A stretch of DNA of 64,000 nucleotides from a candidate division WOR-3 bacterium (GTDB taxonomy: Bacteria; Hydrothermota; Tepidihabitantia; Tepidihabitantales; Tepidihabitantaceae): NCBI GenBank assembly GCA_965648905.1, contig CBFGIT010000001.1, forward strand, positions 64,001 through 128,000. The letters run 5' to 3'. The translations under genes were made by a program, and so were the position numbers. The notes below the pieces were generated by a model. That model saw nothing but the letters and a program-made list of their open reading frames with translations. It was not told the origin of the DNA and searched no databases. Positions 37,086 to 52,900 of the stretch are shown here, in pieces. The first letter of the stretch is position 1. The number at the start of each line of letters is the position of its first letter.

Positions 37086-37094
37086 CTGCCTGCT

Positions 37095-37904: not shown

Positions 37905-37938
37905 CAGGTAGAACCGTGGCAGCAGAGCATAACCTGTC

Positions 37939-37967
37939 AGTATAGAACCCAGCTCAGGTTGCGTCAA
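37939..37967 (-). promoter_or_regulatory. Sigma70-like promoter of lepB
   Basis: TTGACG-17 nt-TATACT. Confidence 0.65.
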
Positions 37968-38015
37968 GCCAGGCCACCAGCCCCTAGTTCCGACATTGGG
38001 ACCTCGATTCCGGTG

Positions 38016-38110
38016 AAAAAAGAAGCTGCTCCCCTCGTATCACCTGCGTCCAAACACTATATGACAGTTCACCCGTCAGGTGAAGAAAGGAGCAGCCAGA
38101 TGTTTAGACC
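38016..38110 (-). ncRNA. Candidate structured small RNA ending in hairpin plus U tract
   Basis: Long stem GCUGCUCCUUUC/GAGGGGAGCAGC and UCACCUG/CAGGUGA, then U6. Mismatches resolve as G-U only on the minus strand. Confidence 0.4.
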
Positions 38111-39197
38111 AATGCTAACCCAGAAACGGCTCGACTTCCAGCTTGCGCCAACCTCCGATACTATCACCAGTCGGGCCTGCCCGCGCCCAGGCAGGCGGGC
38201 AGGTCTGGCCCTGTTTTCAGGAAGCCGCGCTGGCACTGGGTGTCCGCAGGAGCCATCTTGGCAGTCGATTCTCACTCTGCCTTCGGCCTTTGTCCGCACT
38301 CCTGCCTCCTTTCGTCTTTTCTGCACCTCTGCCATTCTGCACTCTGCAATCTGTATTCTGCCTTCGTCCTACCATATGACCATCCCCTGGCTGGTAAGGG
38401 GGACGGTTCCCCTTTCGGAACCCCCTGCCCCGACCCCGGCCGAAACCCGTTGGGCAGCCCCAGGCGAAGCGGCTACGCCTTCCCCTGCCCCAGTCCTTTC
38501 GGCAACCCCTGCGCCTGTCGCCGCCCCGGGGGGTTCGGCGGCCCGCGCCCAGGCCCGATGCGTTCGCGGGTCCCCAACCCAGACCCAGACCGGTGCCGAC
38601 CCCCCTGCCCATCCGCCCGCGCCTCCCCTTGCCCAGACCACCGCAGTACCCCTCAGCCCGGCAGAGAAGACGACACCAGAGACCATCCGGACCATCCGGT
38701 TTGCCCGCAAGCGTCTGATAACGGCCGATGCCACAAATGTGTCCGCACTCCGAAACCCATCAGACGACGGTCTACTTAGTCAATCGGACTACCAACCGCG
38801 TGATCCCATCAAGTCCGAAGCTCAATATCGGGATTGGGGACCAGGGGGCCGGAATCTCTCCTGTCGTGGTCACGATTCCGGCAGCGGGCAGAGCAGTCCT
38901 ACCGCTTCTCTCACCACTGCCCACGCGAGCGCTGCCAGACCCGGTGTCGAGTCCGGCCCTGCGCACGACCGCCAACCTGCCCCCGGACCAGCCTTGGGGC
39001 CCGCAACCGCAACCGGCAGCCCTGATGCTGCCCGTCCTGCAACCGCACCCGCCGCCACAACCGGCAAGACATCTGACTCCAGCTCCGACGCGGCAGATGC
39101 CGGCCCAGCCGGCTTCTCGCCCGAACTCGGGTTCGGCAAGGGGAGCCACTCCCCCACTCGCTCCCAGAGCCACCCGAAAGACCCGGCGCGAAACTGA
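38100..39197 (+). CDS. Possible Pro/Ala/Thr-rich low-complexity hypothetical protein
   Basis: AAAGGAG RBS before ATG 38100 and an open frame to 39197. Includes a heptamer tract and CCCCTGCCC-like repeats, so it may be non-coding. Confidence 0.25.
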   Translation: MFRPMLTQKRLDFQLAPTSDTITSRACPRPGRRAGLALFSGSRAGTGCPQEPSWQSILTLPSAFVRTPASFRLFCTSAILHSAICILPSSYHMTIPWLVRGTVPLSEPPAPTPAETRWAAPGEAATPSPAPVLSATPAPVAAPGGSAARAQARCVRGSPTQTQTGADPPAHPPAPPLAQTTAVPLSPAEKTTPETIRTIRFARKRLITADATNVSALRNPSDDGLLSQSDYQPRDPIKSEAQYRDWGPGGRNLSCRGHDSGSGQSSPTASLTTAHASAARPGVESGPAHDRQPAPGPALGPATATGSPDAARPATAPAATTGKTSDSSSDAADAGPAGFSPELGFGKGSHSPTRSQSHPKDPARN

Positions 39198-39409
39198 GGA
39201 CTAGGCTCCAAGTCTCGCAAATGCAAGACTTAACCCGACTGGTCGTGCTTGTGCAATGCGCGGCTCTAGTCAACGCCGGCCTGACTGCATTCCGCCTGGG
39301 GTTTGTCTCTTGGCTTCTACTCTGCCTGTCGCTGTGTCGCCGCCGCTTTGGCCGTCAGTGCCCAGGGGCCAGTGCCTGACGCGCACGCACTGCACCATGC
39401 GGTGCAAGC

Positions 39410-39437
39410 TTGACTTGGTCGCATTGCGCTCTAGACT
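39410..39437 (+). promoter_or_regulatory. Putative cas operon promoter
   Basis: TTGACT-16 nt-TAGACT upstream of cas6. Palindrome TGCACC-atgc-GGTGCA at 39391-39406. Confidence 0.45.
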
Positions 39438-39510
39438 TCGACTCAACAAGCTGCCCCGGCAGAACGCATTGGTTCGGGCAATGCCGCCTGCCGGGGAGCG
39501 CGAGGGAAAG

Positions 39511-40425
39511 ATGAGAGTTGTACGTCTGAGTGTAGAACTGACCGCTCGTGAACCGGCCCGGCTGCCGCGTTACAAAGGCGCTGTTGTCCGCGGCGGTTTC
39601 GGACTTGCGTTTCGGCGGGTGAGCTGTCCGTTCCCGAAACGCGAGTGTGCTGACTGCCTGCTCGTGAAGCAGTGCGTCTGGTCGTACGTCTTCAACACGC
39701 CCCGACCGGACAACGCCACGGTCATGCGCAAATACGAAACCATTCCCCGGCCCTTTGTCATCGAGCCGCCAGAAGACCAGCGCACCCGGCTTGAGCTCCG
39801 CGACCAACTGCAGTTCGGACTTGTCCTGGTCGGCCGGGCAATCGAGCACATCCCCTACTTCATCTACGCCTTTGAGCAGATGGCCGAGCAGGGGCTGGGA
39901 ACAGGCCGGGGCCGGTTTGCCCTGACCGCGGTCCGACAGGATGGTACGCTCTTTTTCGACAGCAGGGCCAAGTGCTTTGTCACCCCGCTCAGGACGATGT
40001 CACTCGAGCTGGCACCCGGCGCTGACAACCCGGCCCGCGTCACCCTCTACTTCACAACTCCGCTCCGAATCATCCACGAAGGCAGAATGGTACGCCGACC
40101 CGAGTTCCATATCCTGATGCGGGCTCTGCTCCGGCGTCTCGGCCTGCTTGCCTACTTTCATGACCAGCCGGTCGAGCTTGACTACAAGACCCTTATCGGG
40201 CAAGCTGAGAGCGTACCGATGGTGGACTGCGCCCTTGCCCGAGTCGAATGGCGCCGCTTCTCCTCGCGTCAAGACCGCGTGGTCGAGATGGAAGGCATGG
40301 AAGGCAGGGCGACGTACGAAGGCAATGTTGGTCTGTTCCTGCCCTTCCTGAAAGCGGGCGAAATACTCCACGTCGGCAAGGGCACAACTTTCGGCATGGG
40401 CAAATACAAGATGGAGGTGAGATGA
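39511..40425 (+). CDS. cas6: CRISPR pre-crRNA endoribonuclease Cas6
   Basis: C-terminal Gly-rich loop HVGKGTTFGMG, N-terminal Cys cluster, PRPFVIEPP. Confidence 0.92.
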   Translation: MRVVRLSVELTAREPARLPRYKGAVVRGGFGLAFRRVSCPFPKRECADCLLVKQCVWSYVFNTPRPDNATVMRKYETIPRPFVIEPPEDQRTRLELRDQLQFGLVLVGRAIEHIPYFIYAFEQMAEQGLGTGRGRFALTAVRQDGTLFFDSRAKCFVTPLRTMSLELAPGADNPARVTLYFTTPLRIIHEGRMVRRPEFHILMRALLRRLGLLAYFHDQPVELDYKTLIGQAESVPMVDCALARVEWRRFSSRQDRVVEMEGMEGRATYEGNVGLFLPFLKAGEILHVGKGTTFGMGKYKMEVR

Positions 40426-42653
40426 ATAACAACGAAGACCGCGAGTTTCAAACCGTCGTCCTCGCTGCCCTGCTCCACGACATCGGCAAATTCGCTCAAC
40501 GGGCCGGAGTAGTCCCGGGCGGCTACGAACATTTCACCGAAGACGACCACGGTGCTCACGGCGCTCACGGCAAGTGGGGCGCATGGTTTGTCGAGCATTA
40601 CCTGCCTGACGAGTATAAAGCCGCTGGTGCCGCCGTGCTATTCCACCATCGACCCCAAGACCCTGTCACAGAGCTGGTCGCGCGTGCTGACCGTCTTTCT
40701 GCCGGTGAAAGAAACCTGGATTCGGGAGGAGACACATCTAAGTCCAGGCTCGTGCCGATTCTCGGCCGGGTCTATCGTCCGGCGTGGGCCGAAAACGGGT
40801 TCCGACTGAGGCCGCTGTCCATTAGGAAGGACGACGTCTTCCCATTGTGTCCGCAGTCGACTCCGGGTCTCACCGATGAGTACGCTTCTCTCTGGTCCCA
40901 GTTCGCACGCGACGTCGCTGTCCTGCGCAGCAGGAATCTGTCGTTCAGCGCACTGCTCATGACCATGCTTCATCTGCTCCACAAGTACACGTGGTGTATC
41001 CCTAGTGCCGTGTGGGGCTCAGAACCGGACATATCGCTTTATGACCATCTGAAGTCAACCGCAGCTATTGCCGCGGCCCTGTTCAGGTCAGGTCAGCCGG
41101 GCAGGTTCCGGCTCGTGGGCGGCGACATTTGCGGCATCCAGAACTTCATCTATCGACTCGCATCACCGGATGAAGCCCAGGCGGGCATGGCACAACGTCT
41201 GCGCGGCCGTTCGTTCTACGTAGCGCTGCTGGCCGATACAATAGCGGCGGCGGTGCTTGATGAGCTGGCACTGCCCGTGACCAACGCCCTATGGTGCGGC
41301 GGTGGCAACTTCACCATTCTGGCGCACGACATGGCCAACACGCGCGAACTCGAGGTCAGACTGGAAAACTGGCTCTTGGAGCGCTTCCAAGGAGAACTCG
41401 GACTGGCACTCGCCTTTGTGGACATCGACGAGACAGGGCTAGTCAACCTAGCCGACTCCTTGGGCCGACTTGGCCATGAGCTTCAGAAGGCGAAGCAGCA
41501 CAGGTTTGCGTCAGTGGAATGGCATCAGCCGTTCGCATTGACCGGTGAAGTGTGCCGCGTCTGCGGGAAAGACAGTGTCGAAGCTCTCTGTGCTGCATGC
41601 CGACAACACGAGCGGGTCGGCCAGGCAATCCCCCGCAGCAGATACTTGTACCGCGTAGCAGCGGCAGAGGAAGACAGTCAAGACCCGATCACGGAGTTCC
41701 GCGAGTTCGGCGCTGCTTGGGGCTTGGCCGGCGACCTGAGCGACGTGCCAAAGGGAGCCACAGAGGTCTACGCACTCAACACCACGGAGATGCCCCTTGC
41801 GTCAGTGCCACCACACGTCGGATGCGGCTTCAGGCTCCTCGCCCAGCGGGTTCCGGGTGACGGTCACGGCATCCTGACCTTTGACGAGATGGAACGCCGG
41901 AGTACCGGTGCGAAGTTCCTCGGCGCCTTGCGAATGGATGTGGACAATCTAGGCAAGACGTTTGGCTTCGGACTCGGCCAAAACAAGACGCTGTCCAGAA
42001 TTGCCGCACTAAGTCGGTCGATTGACCTTTTCTTCAGCGGCTACCTGAATGAGCTTGCTTCAGACTTCGAAACAGCCTACGTACTGTACGCCGGTGGAGA
42101 CGACGTCTTTGTTGTTGCTGCCTGGGACGAGGCTGTGGCCGTGGCGCGCCGGATCCGGGACGAACTGATGGCCTACTCCTGTGACAACGACCACGTGTGC
42201 ATCTCCGCCGGATTACACCTCTTCAAGCACGCATTCCCGATCGGCATCGCGGCCGGGCTGGCACGGGAAAAGCTGGAGAATCTGGCGAAGAAGAATGCGT
42301 CTGAAGGTCGCGAGAAAGATTCTCTCGCCGTCTTTGAATTCCCCTGCACCTGGCACAGAGCACGCGAAGCGCTCGCTCTTGCAGCAGAGGTGCTCAGACC
42401 GAGCATCGAGTCGAAACACTTGTCGCGACGCTTCTTGTACAACCTGCTAGACATCTATCGCACCCATTTCCGCAACGGAGTCGAGCACATTGGCTGGGTA
42501 CCCAGGTTTCGGTACCTGCTGAAGCGCAACGTCCCTGCAGAGGTCGACGGCCACCCCAATGAGCTGTATGCTACGCTTCTGGCGAAAATGCCGACGATGA
42601 TGAGACTCACGCCCCTCTGGGCAAATTGGGTTCTACTGGCAACAAGAGACTAA
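40422..42653 (+). CDS. cas10: Type III-A Cas10/Csm1
   Basis: HD domain LLHDIGKF, SLYDH, LRGRSF, Zn finger, MDVDNLG and YAGGDD palm motif. Confidence 0.96.
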   Translation: MNNNEDREFQTVVLAALLHDIGKFAQRAGVVPGGYEHFTEDDHGAHGAHGKWGAWFVEHYLPDEYKAAGAAVLFHHRPQDPVTELVARADRLSAGERNLDSGGDTSKSRLVPILGRVYRPAWAENGFRLRPLSIRKDDVFPLCPQSTPGLTDEYASLWSQFARDVAVLRSRNLSFSALLMTMLHLLHKYTWCIPSAVWGSEPDISLYDHLKSTAAIAAALFRSGQPGRFRLVGGDICGIQNFIYRLASPDEAQAGMAQRLRGRSFYVALLADTIAAAVLDELALPVTNALWCGGGNFTILAHDMANTRELEVRLENWLLERFQGELGLALAFVDIDETGLVNLADSLGRLGHELQKAKQHRFASVEWHQPFALTGEVCRVCGKDSVEALCAACRQHERVGQAIPRSRYLYRVAAAEEDSQDPITEFREFGAAWGLAGDLSDVPKGATEVYALNTTEMPLASVPPHVGCGFRLLAQRVPGDGHGILTFDEMERRSTGAKFLGALRMDVDNLGKTFGFGLGQNKTLSRIAALSRSIDLFFSGYLNELASDFETAYVLYAGGDDVFVVAAWDEAVAVARRIRDELMAYSCDNDHVCISAGLHLFKHAFPIGIAAGLAREKLENLAKKNASEGREKDSLAVFEFPCTWHRAREALALAAEVLRPSIESKHLSRRFLYNLLDIYRTHFRNGVEHIGWVPRFRYLLKRNVPAEVDGHPNELYATLLAKMPTMMRLTPLWANWVLLATRD

Positions 42654-42663
42654 AGGAGGCAAT

Positions 42664-43086
42664 ATGCCCACGACACTAGATGATTTCGTGACAAGCATCA
42701 GATCCAAGAGCTGCTTGGACGACGATATGATGGCGAAGGCCGAGAAGCTGGGCCAGGAGCTGGGAGGAGTCACCACCAGCAAGATGCGTCAGTACTTCGA
42801 CGACATCAAAGGCCTACGGCGCATGGTCGAGAGCAGGGCAAGTGCGCAGCAGGTCAAGGTGAAGCTGCGCCTCGTGCAGTCGCGGCTTGCCTATGACGTA
42901 GGCCGGGCCAGCAAGAAACAGCGGCCCGACATGGAGAAACTCAAGCGCTTCCTGGACGCAGGTATCTCTCGGGTCTTGAACAGCAACGACGCCTGCCAAG
43001 CGGTCAAGGACTTTGCCGTGTTCTTCGAATGCGTCTATGGGTACTTCTACTCCAACGCCAAACCGGAGAATGAGGAGGAAAGATGA
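42664..43086 (+). CDS. csm2: Type III-A small subunit Csm2
   Basis: TTSKMRQYFD, RLAY.VGR, FFE..YGY. Position after cas10. Confidence 0.88.
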   Translation: MPTTLDDFVTSIRSKSCLDDDMMAKAEKLGQELGGVTTSKMRQYFDDIKGLRRMVESRASAQQVKVKLRLVQSRLAYDVGRASKKQRPDMEKLKRFLDAGISRVLNSNDACQAVKDFAVFFECVYGYFYSNAKPENEEER

Positions 43087-43919
43087 GCTACAGGTTTCTA
43101 GGAAACATCATAGTGACCGGCACAATCAAGTGCGAAACCGCCTTGCACATTGGTGGCACAGTCGAAGGTTATGAAATCGGTGGGATGGATAACCCCGTTA
43201 TCCGTGAACCCGTAACCGGGTATCCCTACATACCAGGGTCTTCGCTCAAAGGGAAGATGCGCAGTCTGCTGGAATGGGCCAAAGGTCACGTACAGGTTGC
43301 CGAGGTCGACAAGAACGGCAAGAAAAGGGAAGTTGGCGAGGTCCACAGTTGCAGCAGAGCAGACTGCCCGGTCTGTCGTTCATTTGGCACACCGGCCGAA
43401 CAGACCAGAATCGTGGGGCCGACTCGGCTCTTGGTGCGGGACGCACACCCGACCGAAGACACCAAGAAGAACCTCGACCGTCTGCAACTCGAAAAGGGCC
43501 TTCCCAAGGCCGAATGGAAGTCGGAGAACTATATGAACCGCGTAACAGCACAGGCCACGCCGCGGACCATCGAGCGTGTTCCACAGGGCGCGGAGTTCGC
43601 GCTTGAGTTGGTCTACGGGCTGTACCGGGTAGAAGGCGAACAGGACATTGTCGACATTGGTCACCTGCAGTACGTGATTGAAGCGATGCGCCTGCTGGAA
43701 GACTCGGCACTGGGCGGGTATGGTTCGCGCGGCTCCGGCAAGATTTCGTTCGACCTTGCCGGGAGTGTCCTTCTCCGAACAACCGCCGACTATGAGACGG
43801 GCAAGCCCGGTATACCGCTTGACTTTGGCTCTCTCAAGGACGCAGACGTTGGCAAGCTTAAAGAGCAGGTGAAAAGGCACCTGGCCCAGGCAGATGAAGG
43901 CGCTGACGCTACATCTTAG
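43083..43919 (+). CDS. csm3: Type III-A RAMP Csm3
   Basis: LHIGG...IGGMDNPV, PYIPGSSLKGKMRS, LGGYGSRGSG. Confidence 0.95.
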   Translation: MSYRFLGNIIVTGTIKCETALHIGGTVEGYEIGGMDNPVIREPVTGYPYIPGSSLKGKMRSLLEWAKGHVQVAEVDKNGKKREVGEVHSCSRADCPVCRSFGTPAEQTRIVGPTRLLVRDAHPTEDTKKNLDRLQLEKGLPKAEWKSENYMNRVTAQATPRTIERVPQGAEFALELVYGLYRVEGEQDIVDIGHLQYVIEAMRLLEDSALGGYGSRGSGKISFDLAGSVLLRTTADYETGKPGIPLDFGSLKDADVGKLKEQVKRHLAQADEGADATS

Positions 43920-44901
43920 GTCCCCGTCGGGATTCAAGGATACCCTGCCTCGCTCTGATACGCTGTTCGGCGCGGTCTGTTGGGGCATCTGGCTACTATA
44001 CGGTGAAGTGAGGCTCAGGCAGTTCCTTGCGAGCTACGCGAACGAGAATCCTGCGCTAGTAGTGTCGTCGGCATTTCCTTACTTGGTAAGCGACGGACAG
44101 ACAACACATCTCTTCCCCAAACCAAAGTCCTGCCCCGCGACACCGCCAGCCGACGAGCGCCACTTCGGGCTTGCCAAGCGTTTCCGAAAGGTCAGATACC
44201 TGGACGACGCGTTGTTCCAAAAGGTCATCGAAAACGGCCTGACCAATCAGGACCTGTGGGATTCGCTGGTTCGGAATGAGACAACTCTTTCAGATGACCA
44301 ACAGGTTCTCTCGCACGTCCGCTCGAAAGGCCCCGGCTTGAAGCTTGAGGTGGTACCTGGCAATGCAATCGACCGGCTCGCCGGAGGTACGCTTGAAGGC
44401 ATGCTCTACCATTCGACCGAATGGTTCTTCGGCCCGGACACGGGGGCGTTCTTTCTTGCCCGCCTTGCTGAAGAATGGGAGAAGGAAGCGCTCGCGGTGT
44501 TCCGCTACTACGGGGACAAAGGGCTGGGCGGCGACAGCTCGGTCGGCAAGGGCAACTACAAACTCGACGTAAATGATGGCTTGCCGTATCGAGAGCCGTC
44601 CGACGGCAAGCGCTGGGTGACGTTGTCGCTGTACTATCCGAAACCGGCTGAGTGGGATTTCTGCCGGAACAATCCCGAACAATCCTGGTACTCGGTGATA
44701 CGGCGCAAGGGCAGAGTCGAGAGCGCCTTCAGCCCGACTACCAACTCCTGGAAGAAATCTGTGCTGATGCTTGAAGAAGGGTCGAGCTTCCCTGTCATTG
44801 ACGGAATCGGTGAGTACGGGATGCTGCCCGAGGTTGGGGCAAGACCGGATGGTGCCAAGGTGCTCCAAAATGGGCTTGCTTTCCCGGTCAAGATGAGGTG
44901 A
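43894..44901 (+). CDS. csm4: Type III-A RAMP Csm4
   Basis: SDTLFGA, SSAFP, GLGGDSSVGKG, EEGS.F. Confidence 0.92.
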   Translation: MKALTLHLRSPSGFKDTLPRSDTLFGAVCWGIWLLYGEVRLRQFLASYANENPALVVSSAFPYLVSDGQTTHLFPKPKSCPATPPADERHFGLAKRFRKVRYLDDALFQKVIENGLTNQDLWDSLVRNETTLSDDQQVLSHVRSKGPGLKLEVVPGNAIDRLAGGTLEGMLYHSTEWFFGPDTGAFFLARLAEEWEKEALAVFRYYGDKGLGGDSSVGKGNYKLDVNDGLPYREPSDGKRWVTLSLYYPKPAEWDFCRNNPEQSWYSVIRRKGRVESAFSPTTNSWKKSVLMLEEGSSFPVIDGIGEYGMLPEVGARPDGAKVLQNGLAFPVKMR

Positions 44902-44904
44902 ACC

Positions 44905-46080
44905 ATGAGCACAAGAGCAACAGACACCTATGAACTGAAGCTCACCCCACTCAGTCCGATCCACATCGGAACTGGCCGCGAGTACTTTCCCCAAGAGTAC
45001 TGTCTTGTCAGCGATCCAGACCGCGTCCTTATTGTAGACCTGAACTCGCTGATTCAGAAGTACCCGGACATTGCCGAACAGAGCTTTGCGGCTGGGAGAC
45101 GCGAACCCCTCTGGAAAACCCCGGCTGGCAACCTGGTCCGACAGGATAAGTCATTGGTTCTATACTCTGACAAGACCGACCGCCATACTGCCGGCGACAT
45201 CAAGACTTACGCCGAGCGCGGCAACGCCGCAACCATACGGGAGTTTACCAAGACGGCAAACTCGCAACCCTACATTCCTGGCAGTTCCGTCAAAGGCGCG
45301 GTTCGTACGGCAATCGCGTACGCCCTGCTCAGCAGTTCGGCTGAGATGTTCACCCGGTTCAAGCGTGCGGTTGTATTGACCGACAATGGCAGGGTTAGGC
45401 AAGGAGACAAGGAGGCAGTCGAGCACGCGGTGTTCGGCGACAGCGGAGACGCACACGAAGACATCATGCGCGTCTGGTCGTTCAGCGACTCATCCTCGCT
45501 GGCCTGTGACCGGACGCTCACTGTGGTGAAGGGCAAACGGCTGTCAAGCACTGGGCCGCTCGGGTATGAGAACTACTATGAGGTCCTGACCGAGACGAGT
45601 GGTCCGCTTCTGCTTCGATCGGCATTTGACCGTGCGTTGGCAGCGTCGGGCGCATGGACGAGCAAGACGTTGTCCGGTCTGCCCAAGACCATGAAAGATG
45701 TTTTCTCGTGCCTGAATCAGTTTGCTGACGACATCATCGCGTATGAACTTACCTATTTCGATAGGCATCCAGCCAAGCCGCAGGAAGTCGTGAACTTCTA
45801 TCAAACCCTCAAGCAGCGACGCGAGCACGGCGAGGTTCTGCTCTGTCTAGGCAAGGGCACTGGTTGGCATAGGAAGACCATAGGCCAGCTTCTGCGCAAG
45901 GACCGAAGCTCCATCTTCCGCGACGTCGTAAGCGCGTACAGCCTCGGCAAGGGCCAACGCCGCTTCACAGACTTTCCGACCTCCCGTGAGATGGCCGTTC
46001 GCGCCCGCATGCCGGGCGTGTTCGGTTGGGCCAGAATTGAACAGATGAGCAGCAAGCAACCAGATGGGAGAACCAGATGA
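44905..46080 (+). CDS. csm5: Type III-A RAMP Csm5
   Basis: TPLSPIHIGTG, YIPGSSVKGA.RTA, LGKGTG, FGW. Confidence 0.92.
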   Translation: MSTRATDTYELKLTPLSPIHIGTGREYFPQEYCLVSDPDRVLIVDLNSLIQKYPDIAEQSFAAGRREPLWKTPAGNLVRQDKSLVLYSDKTDRHTAGDIKTYAERGNAATIREFTKTANSQPYIPGSSVKGAVRTAIAYALLSSSAEMFTRFKRAVVLTDNGRVRQGDKEAVEHAVFGDSGDAHEDIMRVWSFSDSSSLACDRTLTVVKGKRLSSTGPLGYENYYEVLTETSGPLLLRSAFDRALAASGAWTSKTLSGLPKTMKDVFSCLNQFADDIIAYELTYFDRHPAKPQEVVNFYQTLKQRREHGEVLLCLGKGTGWHRKTIGQLLRKDRSSIFRDVVSAYSLGKGQRRFTDFPTSREMAVRARMPGVFGWARIEQMSSKQPDGRTR

Positions 46081-47306
46081 CAGCTTACATTGCCACTGTC
46101 GGCACGAGTGAGGCACGCAAGGGTGACATTGTTGCCGCCCTGTCTTTGTCCGCAGGCCAGATGACCCCCGGTTTCGTTCTGCTGTTGGCCACAGAGAAAT
46201 CTAGGCCCAACGCCGACGCCATCCTCCAGCAACTTGGCCGCGACGACAGCAACTCGCTTATCTACGTCCTCGAGGCCGAGCCTGAACACGCGCAGAACAT
46301 CTATAACGAAACGATTGACGTCATAACGCGGACGCTGAGCCGGCACCATATTCGGCCCGACGACGCCACCGCTGACATTACGTCAGGAACCAAACCGATG
46401 TCCGCAGCTCTGACCTTGGCCGCAGTTAAGCTCGGAATCGGCTATCTACGGTACGTGGCGGTCGAGAAGACTGCTAACAAGGAGGTCTGTACCGGCACCG
46501 AGGAGCTTCGGACGTTCCGGCCACTGGGCTTCCGTGCATCGCTCCTGCTCGACTCGGCGGTCAACCTGATGCGCCAGTACCGTTTCGATGCTGTCCGGCA
46601 ACTGCTTGAACCCATGCCCGAACACCTGTTGAGCGAATCTGAGAGGGCGACAAGGACCTGTCTCCTCTGTCTGGCGCGTGCATATTCCCACTGGGACATG
46701 TTCCGCCACACGCACTTTCAGGGCGAGTACGGCAAGGCGCGCTTTGGCGGCTTACCCGAGCTTCAGCAGTTCCGGCCTCAGCCCGACACGGTGCGAACGG
46801 TCTTGGAACTGGGCGTGGCTCTTGAGCAGGGCAAGCCGACCGACCTGGCTGTCGTCGACCTCATCAACAACGCCCGTCGCCGCATCGAAGAAGGCAAGTT
46901 CGACGACGCGACCGCCCGGCTCTACCGTGCCACCGAGATGCTTGCTCAGTGGCGACTGCACACCAAGCACGGCATCGACACTTCCGATGTTGACATCAAC
47001 AAGGTGCCACAGGCTTCGCGTCAATGGCTGGAGTACAGCCGCGACAACACCGACAAGAAAATCAGAGTCGCCTGCGAACGCGGCTACCGGCTTCTCTTCG
47101 ACCTGGGTGACCCGCTGGGCCCTGCTTTCAAAGACATCAAAGGCAATCTCCGGACTCGCAACGACTCCATCCTGGCCCACGGGCTCACGCCTGTCACCGA
47201 GGAAGTCTGCAACAGCCTGCGCAAAGCGGTCGAGAAGATGGCGAAGGAGGCCATCGCCGACTACGACTCGAAGTCCGCTCTGCTCCGGTTTCCCTGGAGC
47301 AGGTAG
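46077..47306 (+). CDS. CARF-domain effector, TIGR02710/Csm6-like, with HEPN-like motif
   Basis: TVGTS, DITSGTKPMS (CARF), ARLYRA.E, RNDSILAHG. Confidence 0.85.
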   Translation: MTAYIATVGTSEARKGDIVAALSLSAGQMTPGFVLLLATEKSRPNADAILQQLGRDDSNSLIYVLEAEPEHAQNIYNETIDVITRTLSRHHIRPDDATADITSGTKPMSAALTLAAVKLGIGYLRYVAVEKTANKEVCTGTEELRTFRPLGFRASLLLDSAVNLMRQYRFDAVRQLLEPMPEHLLSESERATRTCLLCLARAYSHWDMFRHTHFQGEYGKARFGGLPELQQFRPQPDTVRTVLELGVALEQGKPTDLAVVDLINNARRRIEEGKFDDATARLYRATEMLAQWRLHTKHGIDTSDVDINKVPQASRQWLEYSRDNTDKKIRVACERGYRLLFDLGDPLGPAFKDIKGNLRTRNDSILAHGLTPVTEEVCNSLRKAVEKMAKEAIADYDSKSALLRFPWSR

Positions 47307-47414
47307 CCACCGGCCGACCAGCCGGTGGCACAGGCGGTCCGCGCCTGCTGCTCTTTGACAATTTGGAGTGAAACCGACCCCAACACATCATCGACCAAAC
47401 CTGAGGCGGACACA

Positions 47415-48404
47415 ATGGCTACCCTCTATGTGACTGAACAAGGCGCCAAGCTCACCCGTGAATCACGCCGTCTCCTGGTCGTACGCGGCGACGAAACTCT
47501 GCTTGACGTCCCGACCATCAAAGTCGAACGCGTGCTCATCTTCGGCTACTGCCAGATTACCACCCAGGCGCTCGAACTCCTGCTCAACGAAGGCATTCCG
47601 ACCGCGTTCCTCTCCATGGAAGGCCGGCTCAAAGGCACACTCGAACCGACGAAATCGAAGAACATCCCGCTGCGCGTGGCCCAGTACGAAACCTGCCGCC
47701 AGCCCGACTTCTGCCTCACCATGGCCAAACGCATCGTCGCCGGCAAAGTCAAGAACCAGTCGCGGCTGGTACAGCGCTTTGCTCACAACCGGCCCGAGCT
47801 CGACTTCGCCCAGGTGCAGGCCGACCTTGCCCGCCTGCACAGCGAGGTTGACCACAAGACCGCGGCCGGCGGCCTGCTGGGAATTGAAGGACACGCGACC
47901 GCCGTCTACTTCGACGCCTTCCGCCAGATGTTCCAGCAGCTCTCCTTCGAACGCCGCACGCGCCGGCCGCCAACCGACCCGGTCAACTCGCTCCTGAGCC
48001 TCGGCTACACCATGCTCGCCAACGAATACCTCTCAGCCGTCGCCGCCGTCGGACTCGACCCGCACCTGGGCTACTTCCACTGCGTCAGCTACGGTCGCCC
48101 CTCGCTCGCGCTCGACCTCTGCGAAGAGCTCCGCCACCCGCTTGTCGACATGCTCACGCTCGACCTGGTCAACCGCGCCATCCTCAAAGAAGACGACTTC
48201 AACCAGGAGCAAGGCGGCTTCATGCTCAAACCCGAAGCGAGAAAGCGTTACTTTGCCAAGTACGAACGCCGCATGACCATCCGGTTCAAACACCCGCGCA
48301 CCGGCCAGACTACCAACGTTCGTTCGATAATCCGCGACCAGGCGCTGGCGATGGCGCACGCGATTCAAGAGAAGAAACCCTATGAACCATACTACATCGG
48401 ATAG
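47415..48404 (+). CDS. cas1: CRISPR-associated endonuclease Cas1
   Basis: TLYVTEQG, LLGIEG, DPVNSLLSLGY, GYFH, SLALDLCEELR. No RT fusion. Confidence 0.96.
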   Translation: MATLYVTEQGAKLTRESRRLLVVRGDETLLDVPTIKVERVLIFGYCQITTQALELLLNEGIPTAFLSMEGRLKGTLEPTKSKNIPLRVAQYETCRQPDFCLTMAKRIVAGKVKNQSRLVQRFAHNRPELDFAQVQADLARLHSEVDHKTAAGGLLGIEGHATAVYFDAFRQMFQQLSFERRTRRPPTDPVNSLLSLGYTMLANEYLSAVAAVGLDPHLGYFHCVSYGRPSLALDLCEELRHPLVDMLTLDLVNRAILKEDDFNQEQGGFMLKPEARKRYFAKYERRMTIRFKHPRTGQTTNVRSIIRDQALAMAHAIQEKKPYEPYYIG

Positions 48405-48413
48405 AGGTGGCAG

Positions 48414-48713
48414 ATGAACCAGACCAGCTCCGACCAGTGGCACGTTGTCGTCAGCTACGACATCAAGAGCGACCGCCGCCGCAACAAGGTATGCAAGGCC
48501 ATGAAAGACTACGGCGAACATATCCAGTACAGCGTCTTCGAATGCCTGCTCAAGCCCAAGGACCTCGACCGGATGGCAAAGCGCGTCCAGTCGCTGATTG
48601 ACGAAGCCGAAGACAACGTTAGAATATACGTGCTTTGCGCTGCCTGCCGTGACCGGGCCAGGGTTATCGGCCAGGGCCAGGTCATAGAAGACCCTGACGT
48701 TCTGGTGGTTTAG
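48414..48713 (+). CDS. cas2: CRISPR-associated endoribonuclease Cas2
   Basis: VVSYDI, RR.KV, QYSVFEC. Confidence 0.96.
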   Translation: MNQTSSDQWHVVVSYDIKSDRRRNKVCKAMKDYGEHIQYSVFECLLKPKDLDRMAKRVQSLIDEAEDNVRIYVLCAACRDRARVIGQGQVIEDPDVLVV

Positions 48714-48805
48714 TTCTGGGTTGACGGCAAGAGGCGCAAGAACAGGGGTCTCAACCCAAACGGCCTACTTAAGCTACTGTTTAGCAATAGCTTACAAGGC
48801 CGAGG
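48714..48805 (+). promoter_or_regulatory. CRISPR leader
   Basis: Relatively AT-rich non-coding stretch between cas2 and the first repeat. Degenerate repeats lie at the far end of the array. Confidence 0.65.
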
Positions 48806-49693
48806 GTCAGAATCCTCGCCCTGATGAAAAAGGGATTACGACCTGTAGGCTTACACCCACAGCACGAACACTCAATTGTCGTCAGAATCCTCGCCCTGAT
48901 GAAAAAGGGATTACGACAAGCCGTCCGGTGACTCCCAGTTGTCGTCGTAGCAGGCACGTCAGAATCCTCGCCCTGATGAAAAAGGGATTACGACGCAGAC
49001 GCCAGACTCAAGCTCGACCCAGCTCTGCTGCGTCAGAATCCTCGCCCTGATGAAAAAGGGATTACGACGCTTCTCTGTCAGCGAGTACGAAGCGCGGCCT
49101 ATCGAGTACCGAGTCAGAATCCTCGCCCTGATGAAAAAGGGATTACGACCAAGGTCCAAAGAACCCCATGACGATCACGGAGCATCCAGATTCGGTCAGA
49201 ATCCTCGCCCTGATGAAAAAGGGATTACGACGAGGAGTTCGCAGCGCTTCTGAGAATCGGCGCGAAGTGGGTCAGAATCCTCGCCCTGATGAAAAAGGGA
49301 TTACGACGTGTCGGTGGTTCAAGCGTGTCGTTCTCATCCTGCGTTGAGTCAGAATCCTCGCCCTGATGAAAAAGGGATTACGACCTGACGTGGTGGGCGA
49401 AGATACGCTCGTTCTGGTTCTGCCTGTCAGAATCCTCGCCCTGATGAAAAAGGGATTACGACCCCACATAGGGACCCCAATACCCTGCGCATACATTTCT
49501 CTGGGTCAGAATCCTCGCCCTGATGAAAAAGGGATTACGACCTATCGGTGAGCCTTACTGCCACCTTCCCAACACCAGGTATGTCAGAATCCTCGCCCTG
49601 ATGAAAAAGGGATTACGACTTCAAGAGGGTGTCCACGAACTCCAGCAGGTAGTTGCGGTACGTCAGAATCCTCGCCCTGATGAAAAAGGGATT

Positions 49694-49821
49694 TACCGCG
49701 CCTGACGGCGCAAAGGCAGATTGCAGATTGCAGAATGCAGAAGTCAAAATGCCGGGCCGTCCGATGCTTTGACCTTTGCACTTTGCATTTTGCCTTTTGA
49801 CTTGCGCGCGCAGCGCGCCAG
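49694..49821. mobile_element. Hairpin (MITE/REP-like) element in CRISPR repeat 12, copy 1
   Basis: 128 bp between repeat positions 1-32 and 8-37. Imperfect palindrome of heptamer arms. Confidence 0.7.
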
Positions 49822-49924
49822 TCCTCGCCCTGATGAAAAAGGGATTACGACACCGCCTTTACGAGAGGCGGAAGACTAAGTGCGACGCTCACGTCAGAAT
49901 CCTCGCCCTGATGAAAAAGGGATT

Positions 49925-50353
49925 TACCGCGCCTGACGGCGCCAAGGCAGAGTGCAGATTGCAGAATGCAGAAGTCAAAATGCCGGACCGTCCGATGCTT
50001 TGACCTTTGCACTCTGCATTTTGCCTTTTGACTTGCGCGCGCAGCGCGGTGGAATCCTCGCCCTGATGAAAAAGGGATTTGCCGCACCTGACGGCGCCAA
50101 GGCAGAGTGCAGAATGCAGAAGTCAAAATGCCGGACCGTCCGATGCTTTGACCTTTGCACTCTGCATTTTGCCTTTTGACTTGCGCGCGCAGCGCGCCAG
50201 TCCTCGCCCTGATGAAAAAGGGATTTACCGCGCCTGACGGCGCAAGGGCAAAAGGCAGATTGCAGAATGCAGAAGGCAAAATGCCGGGCCGTCCGACACT
50301 TTGACCTTTGCACTCTGCATTTTGCCTTTTGACTTGCGCGCGCAGCGCGCCAG
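49925..50353. mobile_element. Three tandem hairpin elements in CRISPR repeat 13 (49925-50051, 50080-50200, 50226-50353), separated by repeat cores
   Basis: Near-identical to 49694-49821. Separated by partial repeats 50052-50079 and 50201-50225. Confidence 0.7.
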
Positions 50354-50870
50354 TCCTCGCCCTGATGAGAAAGGGATTACGACTTGACGGGCGGCGAGAG
50401 TTGAGTATGCTCTGCACGATGCCGAGTCAGAATCCTCGCCCTGATGAAAGAGGGATTACGACATGGCGCGTCGTGCCGGAACTGACGATTGGGCTACTAA
50501 CCGCTACCTACGTAGCGTAGCTAAAGAGGTGGTTGATGAACTCACTGCACAAAGCTTTGGAAGAGGTGAAAAATCGGGAGCAGACGCCCGAGGAAGCAGA
50601 GAAGGCGCTGGAAAGCCTGTTGTCAGAGGCGAAGAGCTTCCTCGAGAGAAATGGATTTCCATTGACCACAGAGAATTTGCAAGGCGCTTTGATAATCATC
50701 CGGGCTGGCAGAAGAATGAAGAGGGATTCAAGTTAGCGCACGATGCGCTATCGAACATCCCGGAGCTATCTACCCAATTGCAGCGGCTGGAGAACGGGGA
50801 ACTGCATCCCCGGCTGGCGCTACAGATAGTTGACGCCTACGACCAGGCGCGGTTTCGGTCAGAATCCTCG

Positions 50871-52511
50871 CTAAGGAGTCTGCTCCGACTCTGGCAATTC
50901 TGCTTCTCGCATCTCGGCGATTTCGAGTATCTCGACTGCGCGCAGAGCCGCCTGCTTCACGATGCGCGGCTGCTTGCTCAAAGGCCAGGGCCTTGCCATT
51001 CTACGCAACTGGGGCAGAGCGCGGGTCACCCGGAGCCCGGCCAGTCCGTCAATCGCCGCAGCACGGATTTCCGGCTCCGGGTCGTCAAGAGCGGCGAGAA
51101 GGAATTCGGCGCCAATCGGATTGCCAATCTCGCCAACCGCACGCAGGGCGCAGGCCCGCACCAGGTCGCTCTCATCCTTCAGCCGGTCGAGCAGCGGCAT
51201 GGTCGCACGAAAGTCGCGCAGTTTGCCCAGTGCCTCAGCCGCCATTGCTCTCACGACCGGGTCACGGTCGGAAAGCGCGTTGACGAGCGCCGGTGCGGCC
51301 CGGCTTTCACCAATCTCGCCGAGCGCCTGGGCTGAGACGATTCTCACCCAGACCGTCGCATCAGAAAGACCCTGAATCAGCCGTTCGCAGGCTCCCTTGT
51401 GCCGCAGCCGGCCAAGCACATCGGTTGCGCGCACGCGCACCTCGACCAGATTATGGCCGAGCAACTTGAACGTCGGGTCAAGGGCCAGAGCGGCCTGGGC
51501 CTCAAGACCGTTTGCTGCGGCCGCGGCAACTTTCGGGTCCTCGTCTGCCAGCGCAGCAGCCAACAGCTCGGCCGAACGAGAGTTGTGAATCCGGCCCAGG
51601 GCTGATACCGCTGCCAGCCGTACCCGGTCATCAGCATCGGTCAGCACGCCGGCCAGTGCCTCAATGCAGCTCGGGTCGCCGATACCGCCGAGCACCTCGG
51701 CCGCCGATGCCCGCACGGTCGGATTCTCGTTCACCAGCAGCTCCGCGACCGGAATCAGGGCGGTCTTTCCCTGGTCGAGCAGCGCGGTCATCGCATTCAG
51801 CCGGTCGGAAAGGTCCTCAGATGCAAGCGCACGAATCAGCGGGTCCACGGCCTGAACGCTGACGCTGCGCAAAGCCTCAAGTGCGGCGCGGCGGACTTCC
51901 GGGTCCGGGTCTTCGGATGATATGCGGGCGAGCAGCTCCACTGCCTTGCGGTGGCGGAGCCGACCCAGGGCAGTGGCTGCGGCGCAGCGCATTTCCGGGT
52001 TGTCATCGGCCATCTCATCCATCAGCGCATCAACGGTCGAAGGGTCCCGGATTTCACCCAGCGCGCGCGCGGCCGCGATGCGCACCGAATCGACCAGGTC
52101 GCGCAGCAGGTCAAGGAGCGGAGGGATAGCAGCACGGCCGCCAATTCGGCCCAGGGCCACAGCAATTGCCGCACGGGTCTCAGGGTCGCGGTCGGTCGCA
52201 TTACGGGCCAGCAGTCCGACCGCCGAATCAAGGCCCAGCCGGCCAATCAACTCCGGAACCAAAGTCCCAACCGGCCCCTGCCAGTTACTGACGCAGCGGC
52301 TTACCGGCTCGATTGCAGCCGTTCCCAGTGCGACCAGCGCATCGGCCGCACGGCGCCTGATGCTCTCATCCGGGTCAGAAAGCAGCAAAACCAGCGCACC
52401 CGCAGCCTCGCTGCCGCCGATGTTTGCCAACCGGTCCACTGCCTGACCACGAACAACCGGGTCCGTGCTGTGCAGGTCAGAAACGACCCCGCTCAGCGAG
52501 AGATGCTTCAC
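50871..52511 (-). CDS. HEAT/PBS-lyase repeat protein
   Basis: Many L.D.D..VR..AA.ALG repeats. Start moved to GTG 52511, overlapping the cutA stop (GTGA). Confidence 0.88.
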   Translation of the reverse strand: MKHLSLSGVVSDLHSTDPVVRGQAVDRLANIGGSEAAGALVLLLSDPDESIRRRAADALVALGTAAIEPVSRCVSNWQGPVGTLVPELIGRLGLDSAVGLLARNATDRDPETRAAIAVALGRIGGRAAIPPLLDLLRDLVDSVRIAAARALGEIRDPSTVDALMDEMADDNPEMRCAAATALGRLRHRKAVELLARISSEDPDPEVRRAALEALRSVSVQAVDPLIRALASEDLSDRLNAMTALLDQGKTALIPVAELLVNENPTVRASAAEVLGGIGDPSCIEALAGVLTDADDRVRLAAVSALGRIHNSRSAELLAAALADEDPKVAAAAANGLEAQAALALDPTFKLLGHNLVEVRVRATDVLGRLRHKGACERLIQGLSDATVWVRIVSAQALGEIGESRAAPALVNALSDRDPVVRAMAAEALGKLRDFRATMPLLDRLKDESDLVRACALRAVGEIGNPIGAEFLLAALDDPEPEIRAAAIDGLAGLRVTRALPQLRRMARPWPLSKQPRIVKQAALRAVEILEIAEMREAELPESEQTP

Positions 52512-52900
52512 CGTCGTGCTCCAGCACGCTTGTTCTCCGTCCCACCGGCACGCCCCTTCGTGCTCCTGCCCCGACGGGCGACCGGCCTGGTTTCCGCGGC
52601 CAGCCACTCAAGGTATGCCCGGCTGCCGGCTGCGACCGGCAAGGCGATGATTTCCGGCGTGTCATAGGGGTGCAGGGCCCCGAGTCTGCGCACGAGAGCA
52701 TTATAGCGCGAACCGGTGGTCTTGACAAGGCACAGCCATTCGCCCGTAGTCTCCTCCTTGTTCTGCCACCAGTACGTGCTCTCGACCGGGCCAAGGACCT
52801 GCACGCACGCAGCCAGCCGTGCCTTGACCAGCTCGCGGGCGATATGCCGGGCCACAGCGCGGGTCGGTGCAGTCGTCATAACCTGCAGATACTCTGGCAC
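52508..52900 (-). CDS. cutA: Divalent-cation tolerance protein CutA
   Basis: LVKARLAACVQV, S.YWW, HPYDTPEIIALPV, YLEWL. Start at GTG 52900. Confidence 0.92.
   Translation of the reverse strand: MPEYLQVMTTAPTRAVARHIARELVKARLAACVQVLGPVESTYWWQNKEETTGEWLCLVKTTGSRYNALVRRLGALHPYDTPEIIALPVAAGSRAYLEWLAAETRPVARRGRSTKGRAGGTENKRAGARR

Follow-up and report, generated by a model that had tools for sequence, protein, structure and literature searches.

The small palindromic intergenic elements of bacteria include ERIC, Correia/NEMIS, REP-BIME, and RPE, together with similar stem-loop repeat families. CRISPR repeats are usually viewed as nearly closed to mobile DNA; MITE insertions in CRISPR arrays are described as rare, and the case reported in detail places the element in a spacer. 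Specifically, the MITE HqIRS37 in an array of Haloquadratum walsbyi is described as lying within a spacer (PMC3119063), a 134-nt MITE is reported to split arrays CR_6 and CR_7 of Anabaena 7120 (bioRxiv 10.1101/2020.04.14.041012), and a 132-bp MITE in a euryarchaeal CRISPR locus is cited in PMC4390879. Tn7-like transposons have been reported to target CRISPR arrays (Chacon Machado and Peters 2025, PMC11837452), and restriction-modification units are described as inserting with a long target duplication and then being amplified through the flanking repeats (Furuta, Abe and Kobayashi 2010, PMC2853133). Finally, intergenic TAACTGA heptamer repeats located next to start codons have been reported from Beggiatoaceae, Cyanobacteria, and Bacteroidetes (MacGregor 2015, PMC4679880).

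Here, we analyzed a 64,000-nt stretch of DNA (the window; positions 64001-128000 of contig C1) and describe a gene-less DNA palindrome of ~125 bp, termed E, that lies four times inside the repeats of a CRISPR array. All results come from one metagenome-type assembly of 60 contigs. A non-exhaustive literature search brought up no description of an element that lies within a CRISPR repeat and is accompanied by duplication of the repeat hairpin.

E inside the repeats of a type III-A array

The array adjoins a cas operon on the (+) strand (39256..48713), in which Pfam profiles matched Cas10-Cmr2_palm2, Csm1_B, HD, Csm2_III-A, RAMPs, Csm4_C, Csm6 HEPN, Cas1, and Cas2. The operon comprises cas6 (39256-40425; PADLOC PDLC01477, E-value of 6.7e-100 over residues 85-387), cas10/csm1 with its HD domain (40248-42653), csm2, csm3, csm4, csm5, csm6 (CARF-HEPN; TIGR02710, E-value of 1.9e-49), cas1 (47325-48404), and cas2 (48414-48713). 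With a Cas10 that has HD and palm domains, Csm2 to Csm5, Cas6, and an adjoining array, the locus is of type III-A (Csm). Downstream of the leader (48714-48805), the array (48806..50462, (+) strand) contains 11 intact 37-nt repeats, two interrupted repeats at its old (trailer) end, and, after the last spacer (50384-50425), a last full repeat with one substitution (50426-50462). The repeat, R (GTCAGAATCC...ATTACGAC), has 12 full copies with no more than one mismatch, all within 48806-50462, and Rfam CRISPR-DR32 matched the array repeats on the (+) strand below its gathering score. A stray R(1-14) on the (+) strand (50858..50871) abuts the stop codon of a convergent HEAT-repeat gene (50871-52607, (−) strand) and is probably a decayed array end. 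The true spacers (n = 12) range from 37 to 45 nt, and none has a second match longer than 15 nt in the whole genome, which leaves unsupported the idea that E silences a harmful self-targeting spacer.

The layout that had been claimed for repeats 12 and 13, with four E insertions, matches the sequence at 49662-50383, which reads R(1-32)-E1-R(8-37), spacer, R(1-32)-E2-R(5-32)-E3-R(8-32)-E4-R(8-37). Specifically, repeat 12 (49662..49851, (+) strand) is composed of R(1-32) (49662-49693), E1 (49694-49821), and R(8-37) (49822-49851). An ordinary 41-nt spacer (49852..49892) that occurs once in the genome separates it from repeat 13 (49893..50383, (+) strand), which runs from R(1-32) (49893-49924) through E2 (49925-50051), R(5-32) (50052-50079), E3 (50080-50200), R(8-32) (50201-50225), and E4 (50226-50353) to an R(8-37) with one substitution (50354-50383; GAGAAAGGG). 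The 25-nt core R(8-32) was found at 18 places in the array, namely once in every uninterrupted repeat (12/12) and on both sides of every E, at 49669-49693 and 49822-49846 around E1 and at 49900-49924, 50055-50079, 50201-50225, and 50354-50378 around E2 to E4; the Cas6 stem-loop core is therefore duplicated, as had been proposed. An inverted repeat within R itself, AATCC (positions 6-10) and GGATT (positions 28-32), delimits this core.

The left junctions read GGGATT|T(A/G)CCGC in all four array copies, in agreement with the claim that each falls after GGGATT. Three of the four right junctions read GCGCGCCAG|TCCTCG (R8 onward), while that of E2 reads GCGCGGTG|GAATCC (R5 onward) and keeps R5-7; since the copies on contig C9 (see below) define the right end of E as ...GCGCGCCA(CA), the CCAG at the junction is part of E. 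The original prediction that E interrupts repeats and is not an ordinary spacer was borne out by its length (121-128 nt versus 37-45 nt for the 12 spacers). Moreover, ACGAC is absent on the left of E, and its right side lacks GTCAGAA in three cases and GTCA in one. The copies all share one orientation and, as anticipated, are near-identical (90.6-95.8% pairwise) and differ in heptamer number, E3 being one heptamer short. The six E-flanking cores contain one substitution in total, whereas the E copies differ by 4-9%. Variants are distributed as a mosaic that is consistent with recombination: E2 and E3 share four, E4 has AAGGCAG and GACA in common with the C9 copies, and E1 and E4 share others.

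E comprises three hairpins, namely a small GC hairpin (GCGCC-TGAC-GGCGC), a long one with arms built from the lineage heptamer (runs of GCAGAAK in one arm, of its near-complement in the opposite arm), and another GC hairpin (GCGCGC-GCA-GCGCGC). The array copies fold at -57.9 to -71.1 kcal/mol, compared with -38 to -41 kcal/mol (SD 3.3-4.4) for shuffled sequence, and R-E1-R folds with a z score of -3.74; the description of E as a discrete palindromic element, albeit an imperfect one, thus holds. By contrast, the many G-U pairs that had been pointed out on the (+) strand are immaterial, because the best folds contain only two to five and the (−) strand folds about equally strongly (-53 to -79 kcal/mol). 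Since both strands fold equally well, E is a DNA palindrome and not a strand-specific RNA, and folding was rejected as evidence for the latter. Rfam returned only spurious microRNA-family matches.

Copies outside the array and relatives in the family

We found that the E subfamily comprises seven copies at three loci: the array, contig C9, and contig C11. Two copies on the (−) strand of C9 (71269-71393 and 71421-71527) are 83.5-88.8% identical to the array copies, and one on C11 (22206-22332) is 76-80% identical. Both sites are upstream of, and co-oriented with, genes for secreted beta-propeller proteins (BNR/Sortilin and FG-GAP, respectively). Other long heptamer palindromes in this genome are restricted to the one on C11 and a 44-nt one on C58. 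The original prediction of an element that targets CRISPR repeats does not stand as worded, since E also occurs at C9:71269-71527 and C11:22206-22332 in unrelated flanks. The finding that had been named as fatal to it, E genome-wide in unrelated flanks and with no duplication, was made in part, at these two loci.

The C9 site reads E-core-E: two E copies enclose a 25-nt repeat core, and the outer flanks are unrelated. This core is the sole copy outside the array (allowing up to four mismatches), it lies exactly between the two E copies with 24/25 identical positions, and its junctions are R32|E and E|R8, as in the array. Local alignment of the outer flanks to R scored no better than 1,288 and 1,294 of 2,000 shuffles, which rules out that they are decayed repeat, and no flanking duplication was found around the C9 pair or at C11 (0/2 non-array loci). 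C9 also has private variants, namely a substituted core position, the junction CCACAG, and at least five E positions common to the two C9 copies only, and therefore is not an assembly path borrowed from the array. E-core-E in unrelated flanks demonstrates that sequence has been copied from one locus to another, either through homology or as a composite: the module of E plus core has moved.

E is a small subfamily of a heptamer-repeat hairpin class scattered through this bacterial family. Full-length E-like heptamer palindromes were present in 10 of 41 family genomes, including this one, and in all eight genomes of genus g10, where they form a dispersed multi-copy family in unrelated flanks. 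This genome has 80 strict heptamer arrays (8 on the strand of contig C1 that was compared, versus 0 after shuffling), and the most frequent period-7 units reported by TRF were AATGCAG (45) and AAGGCAG (26). One g10 copy (in genome G029) provides a precedent for long flanking duplication in the class, as exact direct repeats of 13 bp lie on either side of it and the start codon of the following gene falls within the repeat (0/300 shuffles). This copy was the only one of nine in g10 with a flanking direct repeat, and with 0/2 at the non-array loci here, a regular target duplication was rejected as a mark of the class. Related arrays in three genomes (G009, G047, and G037) are regularly spaced and lack E. 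The sole other genome of the same genus (G001) has sequences 75-81% identical, no array beside the HEAT gene, and N's at the site equivalent to C9. A 23-nt IUPAC pattern for the left hairpin of E hit two metagenome contigs and one genome contig, and, of these three, the two examined are coding-like DNA that lacks heptamer arms and match by chance; viral contigs gave no match to the repeat core or the right end of E.

The statement that the window holds no transposase proved accurate for the three families searched (Y1_Tnp, DDE_Tnp_1, and rve). The whole genome has two, zero, and five matches, respectively, none next to E. The flanks of one of the two Y1_Tnp genes (C3:109583-109918) carry another inverted repeat of 17 nt (GGGGACGCTACCCATTT); its 13-nt core, GGGGACGCTACCC, matches the genome at 17 places with no more than one mismatch. 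E does not fit a RAYT-mobilized REP/BIME: the Y1_Tnp gene examined has its own repeat family, and E-type hairpins number only seven. With regard to MITEs, E has terminal inverted repeats (T(A/G)CCGCGCC... and ...GGCGCGCCA(CA)). It has no fixed short target-site duplication, since this is 25 or 28 bp in the array and absent at C11 and the C9 pair, and searches for the same three families revealed no parent insertion sequence with its ends and a transposase; the terminal hairpin motifs (up to two mismatches) combined with heptamer arms occur only in E copies.

Origin and possible function of the interrupted repeats

We favor, at about an even chance, an explanation in which one insertion duplicated the hairpin segment of the repeat (25 nt, or 28 nt at E2), after which homologous recombination through the cores raised its copy number and carried it to other sites. 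A single E copy would have entered a trailer-proximal repeat and duplicated R(8-32), the segment bounded by AATCC/GGATT that holds the Cas6 stem-loop, in an insertion with long target duplication. E would then lie between 25-bp direct repeats present in all other repeats, and the module of E plus core could spread by homologous recombination alone. Weighing against this step, 25 bp of homology is close to the lower limit for RecA-type recombination. Unequal crossing-over between cores would give the tandem E2-core-E3-core-E4. Gene conversion, or a circle of E plus core excised and re-entering another repeat core, would give E1 with no spacer duplicated, and recombination of the module with a resident E on C9 would produce E-core-E. 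The right junction of E2 may be a secondary change, possibly a palindrome corrected against its left end, or an independent event. The copies in the array show essentially one junction type and one orientation. A single insertion followed by recombination accounts for the four of them no less well than four targeted insertions would, and the tandem E2-E4 could equally have arisen by repeated targeted insertion. The C9 copies share variants absent from all present array copies, so a simple crossover needs a lost donor copy or later homogenization.

As judged from the sequence, such an insertion would cost the array little. With R(1-32) kept upstream and R(8-37) downstream, the neighboring spacers would each retain an intact 3′ Cas6 stem-loop and the normal 8-nt 5′ tag (AUUACGAC). 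The duplicated-hairpin arrangement probably keeps the array working, and it probably also let E multiply by recombination.

In a rival explanation, which was the main one first suggested, E is an active non-autonomous mobile element that inserts specifically into this CRISPR repeat, directly after GGGATT, with a 25- to 28-bp target duplication, in up to four independent events. We consider this unlikely, even though the four left junctions are identical, the outer left flank at C9 also ends in GATT(C), and a duplication bounded by the repeat's own inverted repeat is expected if structure is recognized. It would also account for E1 being in a separate repeat from E2-E4 with no duplicated spacer, the class is multi-copy and dispersed in g10 with one member flanked by the exact 13-bp duplication, and mobile elements that choose arrays exist, as described for Tn7-like ones (PMC11837452). 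Weighing against it, no gene-carrying element shares the ends of E, and the transposase families offer no candidate (the Y1_Tnp gene examined has a different repeat family, DDE_Tnp_1 is absent, and none of the five rve matches is in the window). Furthermore, the C9 and C11 copies have no duplication and no repeat-like target, the related arrays are E-free, and a duplication that varies between 25 and 28 bp is far above usual transposase footprints. Mis-integration of an E fragment by Cas1-Cas2, with the strands attacked 7 and 5 nt inside the repeat borders and R(8-32) duplicated by gap repair, seems improbable despite several points in its favor: in spacer integration, too, two staggered strand transfers lead to duplication of the target stretch between them, cas1 and cas2 lie directly upstream, and the junctions are symmetric about the repeat's inverted repeat to within 2 nt. 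In published accounts, type III-A Cas1-Cas2 alone is promiscuous in vitro (PMC13769266), and a shifted ruler element moves the second integration site and yields wrong duplications (PMC6895254). Yet the insert is about three times the length of a spacer, lies at the trailer end instead of the leader end, and recurs as the same sequence four times. This reading would also need both cuts to be shifted and a separate recombination event to account for the C9 composite, and the 11 intact repeats include no further aberrant unit.

The 60-contig assembly and the frequent location of heptamer arrays near contig ends raise the question of whether the assembly of short metagenomic reads took wrong routes through a tangle of repeats and so created the tandem and the C9 composite. 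This is highly improbable, given that each E copy and junction has its own variants, the passage from the end of E2 through the core to the start of E3 (TGCCGCAC) is distinct from that between E3 and E4 (TACCGCGC), the C9 composite carries a private core substitution and a private junction, and the same type of E|core junction occurs on two contigs.

Another rival concerns why E was kept. The stem CCCU/AGGG and the G29|A30 cut position are present in all cores, making Cas6 release of E RNAs of 146-155 nt plausible from sequence; Cas6 would excise RNAs of 153, 155, 146, and 153 nt, each with an abnormal tag (AUUUACCG or AUUUGCCG). The E units might be kept for an RNA function, as Cas6-freed hairpin RNAs of ~150 nt (regulators, decoys, or guides), and the C9 core would provide the leader of a secreted-protein gene with a Cas6 site. 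Besides the conserved stem and cut position, this reading draws on the thermodynamic fold of 49540-50470, in which five of eight core stems have a pair probability of at least 0.74, on the single substitution among the six E-flanking cores as compared with 4-9% divergence among the E copies, and on the co-orientation of the array, C9, and C11 copies with downstream transcription. We nevertheless regard it as very doubtful: the other three core stems are predicted to be disrupted, the abnormal 8-nt tag departs from the canonical one at five of eight positions, and equal folding on both strands leaves nothing that marks E as RNA rather than as a DNA palindrome. In addition, the differences among the copies are whole heptamers and scattered substitutions, no compensatory change was seen among the few sequences, the three related arrays do without E, and gene conversion with other repeats explains the core conservation equally well.

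A more far-reaching idea, also rather unlikely, is that E plus core forms a self-propagating cassette for which the repeat hairpin is the attachment site. Entry would take place at the cruciform base, by the CRISPR integrase or some other structure-specific activity, and duplication of the Cas6 hairpin would keep the array functional. The cassette would hop between repeats and amplify through cores, and it could bring a functional Cas6 site to E copies located in mRNA leaders, as at C9 upstream of the secreted BNR-propeller gene. If this were true, host gene expression and ~150-nt hairpin RNAs would be tied to Cas6 processing.

E in relation to described elements

An E that leaves the neighboring crRNA units complete by duplicating the hairpin would let selfish or passenger DNA inhabit a CRISPR array cheaply, and the 25-nt repeat segment could then act as portable homology or as an attachment site. 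E-core-E outside the array shows that repeat sequence, including the Cas6 hairpin, is exportable to ordinary gene leaders; if Cas6 cuts at the C9 leader, CRISPR processing sites would have a natural route into gene regulation.

Like ERIC, Correia, and REP-type elements, E is a gene-less imperfect palindrome of ~125 bp with GC-rich terminal hairpins that occurs in several copies per genome, is found in transcribed leader regions, and has diverged relatives in sister genera. Unlike them, it has arms made of a 7-base tandem repeat, is limited to seven copies at three loci, four of these copies being inside CRISPR repeats, and shows neither a regular short target duplication nor, in the searches made here, a cognate transposase. 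The lineage-wide 7-base tandem repeats of this family resemble the TAACTGA repeats in that many are just upstream of start codons, but the heptamer is GCAGAAK, and some arrays pair up as long palindromes capped by GC hairpins. As a non-coding inverted-repeat element of ~130 bp in a CRISPR array, E recalls the MITEs reported from arrays, while the hairpin duplication, the tandem copies, and the export of repeat sequence set it apart from the published descriptions of the Haloquadratum, Anabaena, and euryarchaeal cases. With Tn7-like elements, whose insertion is suggested to spare array function, E shares the CRISPR array as a landing site, but those are described as autonomous, with TnsD-type targeting and a fixed spacer position, whereas E is gene-less and lies inside the repeat (PMC11837452).

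As described for restriction-modification units (PMC2853133), E has a direct duplication far above a transposase footprint, no linked mobility gene, and flanks that permit tandem amplification. E therefore qualifies as an insertion with long target duplication in the sense of Furuta et al. (2010), with the reservations that its duplication of 25-28 bp is below their cut-off of >30 bp, and that the "empty sites" are intact sister repeats of the same array and not the same site in another strain. Those units are described as kilobase gene units, as against 125 bp for E, and the duplicated target of E is, unlike theirs, itself a multi-copy repeat. E adds to the increasing number of hairpin elements whose target duplications are unusually long and variable.

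A palindromic element within the repeats of a type III-A array

The window, C1:64001–128000, belongs to a genome of 3.01 Mb in 60 contigs (62% G+C) and carries a complete type III-A operon on the (+) strand (39256–48713), with cas6, cas10 (HD domain), csm2–5, csm6 (CARF-HEPN), cas1 and cas2, and a CRISPR array (48806–50462) preceded by a 92-nt leader. The 37-nt repeat (R; positions x to y are written R(x–y)) ends in ...CCCUGAUGAAAAAGGG|AUUACGAC, which gives it the 4-bp stem, 8-nt loop and 8-nt tag typical of repeats that Cas6 processes; the bar marks what we take, from general knowledge of Cas6, to be the cut position. True spacers are 37–45 nt long, and a search for a second genomic match to each of them found none. 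Each of the two last repeats has one substitution, which fits the right side of the array being its old end.

Directly 5′ of cas6 lies an 870-aa ORF (36585–39197, (+) strand) that had no match in Pfam (E-values up to 0.001), NCBIfam or PADLOC and is a possible accessory gene of this type III system. The Cas6 ORF (39256–40425, (+) strand; 389 aa) matches its family from about residue 85 and shares its last 178 nt with the cas10 ORF; the true start of cas6, cas10 or both probably lies further downstream than the ORF starts. At the other end of the locus, ~395 bp separate the last full repeat from a stray partial repeat, R(1–14), which adjoins the stop codon of a convergent HEAT-repeat gene. This stretch (50463–50871), probably a decayed array tail, contains a degenerate repeat-like piece near 50716–50735 and a 66-codon ORF (50536–50736) that matches no family and has a good ribosome-binding site.

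Within the array, a gene-less element of 121–128 nt, E, is present in four copies (E1–E4; 49662–50383). As originally predicted, repeat 12 reads R(1–32)-E1-R(8–37) and repeat 13 reads R(1–32)-E2-R(5–32)-E3-R(8–32)-E4-R(8–37). The copies share 90.6–95.8% identity; one heptamer sets E3 apart, and scattered substitutions form a mosaic across the copies. All four have the left junction GGGATT|T(A/G)CCGC and three the right junction ...GCGCGCCAG|TCCTCG, while E2 ends in ...GCGCGGTG|GAATCC. The duplicated core is R(8–32), or R(5–32) at E2, and is bounded by an inverted repeat internal to R, AATCC (6–10)/GGATT (28–32); the insertion thus lies at the foot of a hairpin or cruciform that R can form. Since R(1–32) is kept upstream and R(8–37) downstream, each flanking spacer still has its complete Cas6 hairpin and its normal tag, and E should come at little cost to the array.

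E is made up of a GC hairpin, a long hairpin with heptamer-repeat arms and a second GC hairpin. Every copy folded far more stably than shuffled sequence, with comparable energies for the (+) strand (−49 to −78 kcal/mol) and the (−) strand (−50 to −82 kcal/mol), which makes E a DNA palindrome; the case for a (+) strand RNA previously drawn from G-U pairing fails, because the (−) strand folds about as well. In E2, folding extends the element's own stem unbroken into the adjoining repeat bases. The cores keep the stem and the predicted cut position, and cutting by Cas6 would give RNAs of 153, 155, 146 and 153 nt in which the tag AUUUACCG or AUUUGCCG would replace AUUACGAC. When the whole region was folded thermodynamically, five of the eight core stems were predicted at a probability of at least 0.74 and three were disrupted, and adjacent E copies tended to pair together. 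Release of E RNAs by Cas6 would be a reasonable consequence of the sequence and is no evidence of function.

Copies outside the array and related palindromes

E is not confined to the array, with further copies on contigs C9 and C11. Two tandem copies form an E-core-E composite on the (−) strand of C9 (C9:71269–71527; locus L005:1493–1760), outside any CRISPR array; a gene for a secreted propeller protein of the BNR/Sortilin type follows ~55 nt downstream in the same direction. The only copy of the 25-nt core outside the array lies exactly between these two E copies (24 of 25 positions identical), and the composite has the same junctions as the array (E...CCACAG|TCCTCG...GGGATT|TGCCGCGCC). A repeat origin of its outer flanks was rejected by comparison with R. 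Private variants show that the assembly did not build the composite along a path taken from the array; together, the core, the array-type junctions and the non-repeat outer flanks indicate that a copy of E-core-E, or of E plus core, passed between the array and a non-CRISPR locus. The variants common to the C9 copies are absent from all present array copies, a point against spread by recombination, which would need a lost donor or later homogenisation. The composite puts a potential orphan Cas6 site into an mRNA leader. The C11 copy (C11:22206–22332) is more distant (76–80% identical) and lies upstream of a secreted FG-GAP protein gene.

Genome-wide, we found 80 strict arrays of GCAGAA(K)-type heptamers, 3 to 13 units long (e.g., C4:1021–1069, C13:8920–8984, C14:3300–3850 and C21:44847–44937); contig C1 had eight on the strand compared and its shuffled version none. 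The commonest period-7 units reported by TRF were AATGCAG and AAGGCAG. Many arrays stop a few bases short of genes whose secreted products carry signal peptides, or extend into the 5′ ends of these genes. On C13, the heptamers apparently encode the charged beginning of a lipoprotein's signal peptide, and a change in unit number at such sites would shift the frame and could act as an on/off switch.

Heptamer-arm matches occurred in 31 of 61 relatives' genomes (own included), some of them to the CRISPR-repeat part of the query. With a covariance model of E, 10 of 41 family genomes (own included) yielded full-length heptamer palindromes capped by GC hairpins, among them all eight genomes of genus g10 and one of the two of g14. 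The model found no full-length palindrome in the single further genome of this bacterium's own genus. One g10 family is clearly multi-copy and dispersed, with unrelated flanks. Flanking duplications are rare in this class (one of nine g10 copies and neither of two non-array loci of this genome). A member of the multi-copy family in genome G029 (L074:1501–1619; G029:C69:59651–59769) lies between exact 13-bp direct repeats, TGTCGTGAGGACC. The start codon (GTG) of the next gene lies within the repeat and is preserved by the duplication, and the palindrome end provides a GGAGG ribosome-binding site. Four g10 genomes (G036, G064, G018 and G010; loci L067, L068, L070 and L083) have a heptamer palindrome capped by GC hairpins at one shared position, ~20 nt from where a conserved gene starts. 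The heptamers of this palindrome differ from genome to genome through divergence, so some of these hairpins persist in place long-term.

Probable origin and spread of the element

The arrangement R(1–32)-E-R(8–37) can be read as an insertion with a 25-bp target duplication or as recombination of a circle, E plus core, with a repeat core, and the two readings are equivalent. Most likely, only the first insertion requires a mechanism outside homologous recombination. That event would have left E flanked by direct repeats also found in every other repeat; unequal crossing-over could then have produced E2–E4 (E-core-E-core-E), and gene conversion, or excision and re-entry, into the neighbouring repeat could have produced E1, with no spacer duplicated. 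Recombination with a resident E on C9 would give E-core-E with no outer cores. The exact 13-bp duplication in G029 fits the long-duplication reading, and the rarity of flanking duplications in the class counts against it. The reverse complement of E's left end is GCGCGGTA..., and the right end of E2 has GCGCGGTG...; in our reading, the palindrome was secondarily corrected here to match its left end, but the junction could instead come from an independent insertion.

Two findings weaken the original prediction of repeat targeting in its strict sense: E also lies on C9 and C11, and three relatives (G009, G047 and G037) have arrays of related repeats that are regular and E-free. Mis-integration of E by Cas1-Cas2 would yield just such a partial repeat duplication, and excerpts of two reports describe type III-A integrases as error-prone without HU (PMC13769266) and ruler shifts (PMC6895254); however, the insert is three times the length of a spacer, lies at the old end of the array and is present four times. 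An assembly artefact is argued against by the distinct variants of every E copy and junction and by one junction type on two contigs, although the tandem copy number of E2–E4, resting on one assembly, is provisional. Searches for a closely related strain found none. A search of the genome covering three transposase families (Y1_Tnp, DDE_Tnp_1 and rve) revealed neither a parent element nor a transposase sharing the ends of E. Overall, this one assembly leads us to infer that E is a small palindromic element, mobile or recombining, whose insertion came with a long target duplication.

Comparison with known systems

A Y1 (HUH) transposase-like ORF of 222 aa on contig C3 (C3:109276–110007; L061:1194–1921) lies between the arms of a 17-nt inverted repeat, GGGGACGCTACCCATTT, whose 13-nt core, GGGGACGCTACCC, has 17 genomic matches with at most one mismatch. 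Fourteen of these continue ...ATTT, most of them followed by a conserved ...GTTGTCAATAG tail. These repeats represent a REP/RAYT-like family unrelated to E.

In a non-exhaustive literature search, no published case combined a palindromic element located within a repeat, a duplicated processing hairpin, tandem amplification and an exported core. MITEs in CRISPR arrays are described as rare in excerpts of three sources (PMC3119063, bioRxiv 10.1101/2020.04.14.041012 and PMC4390879); the HqIRS37 MITE of the first is located in a spacer, whereas E is inside a repeat, and the excerpts of the other two do not state whether the position is spacer or repeat. Tn7-like array-targeting transposons likewise differ from E, occupying a fixed spacer position according to an excerpt of PMC11837452. 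The proposed history of E matches the process that an excerpt of PMC2853133 describes for restriction-modification units, in which 'insertion with long target duplication' leads to amplification via the flanking repeats.
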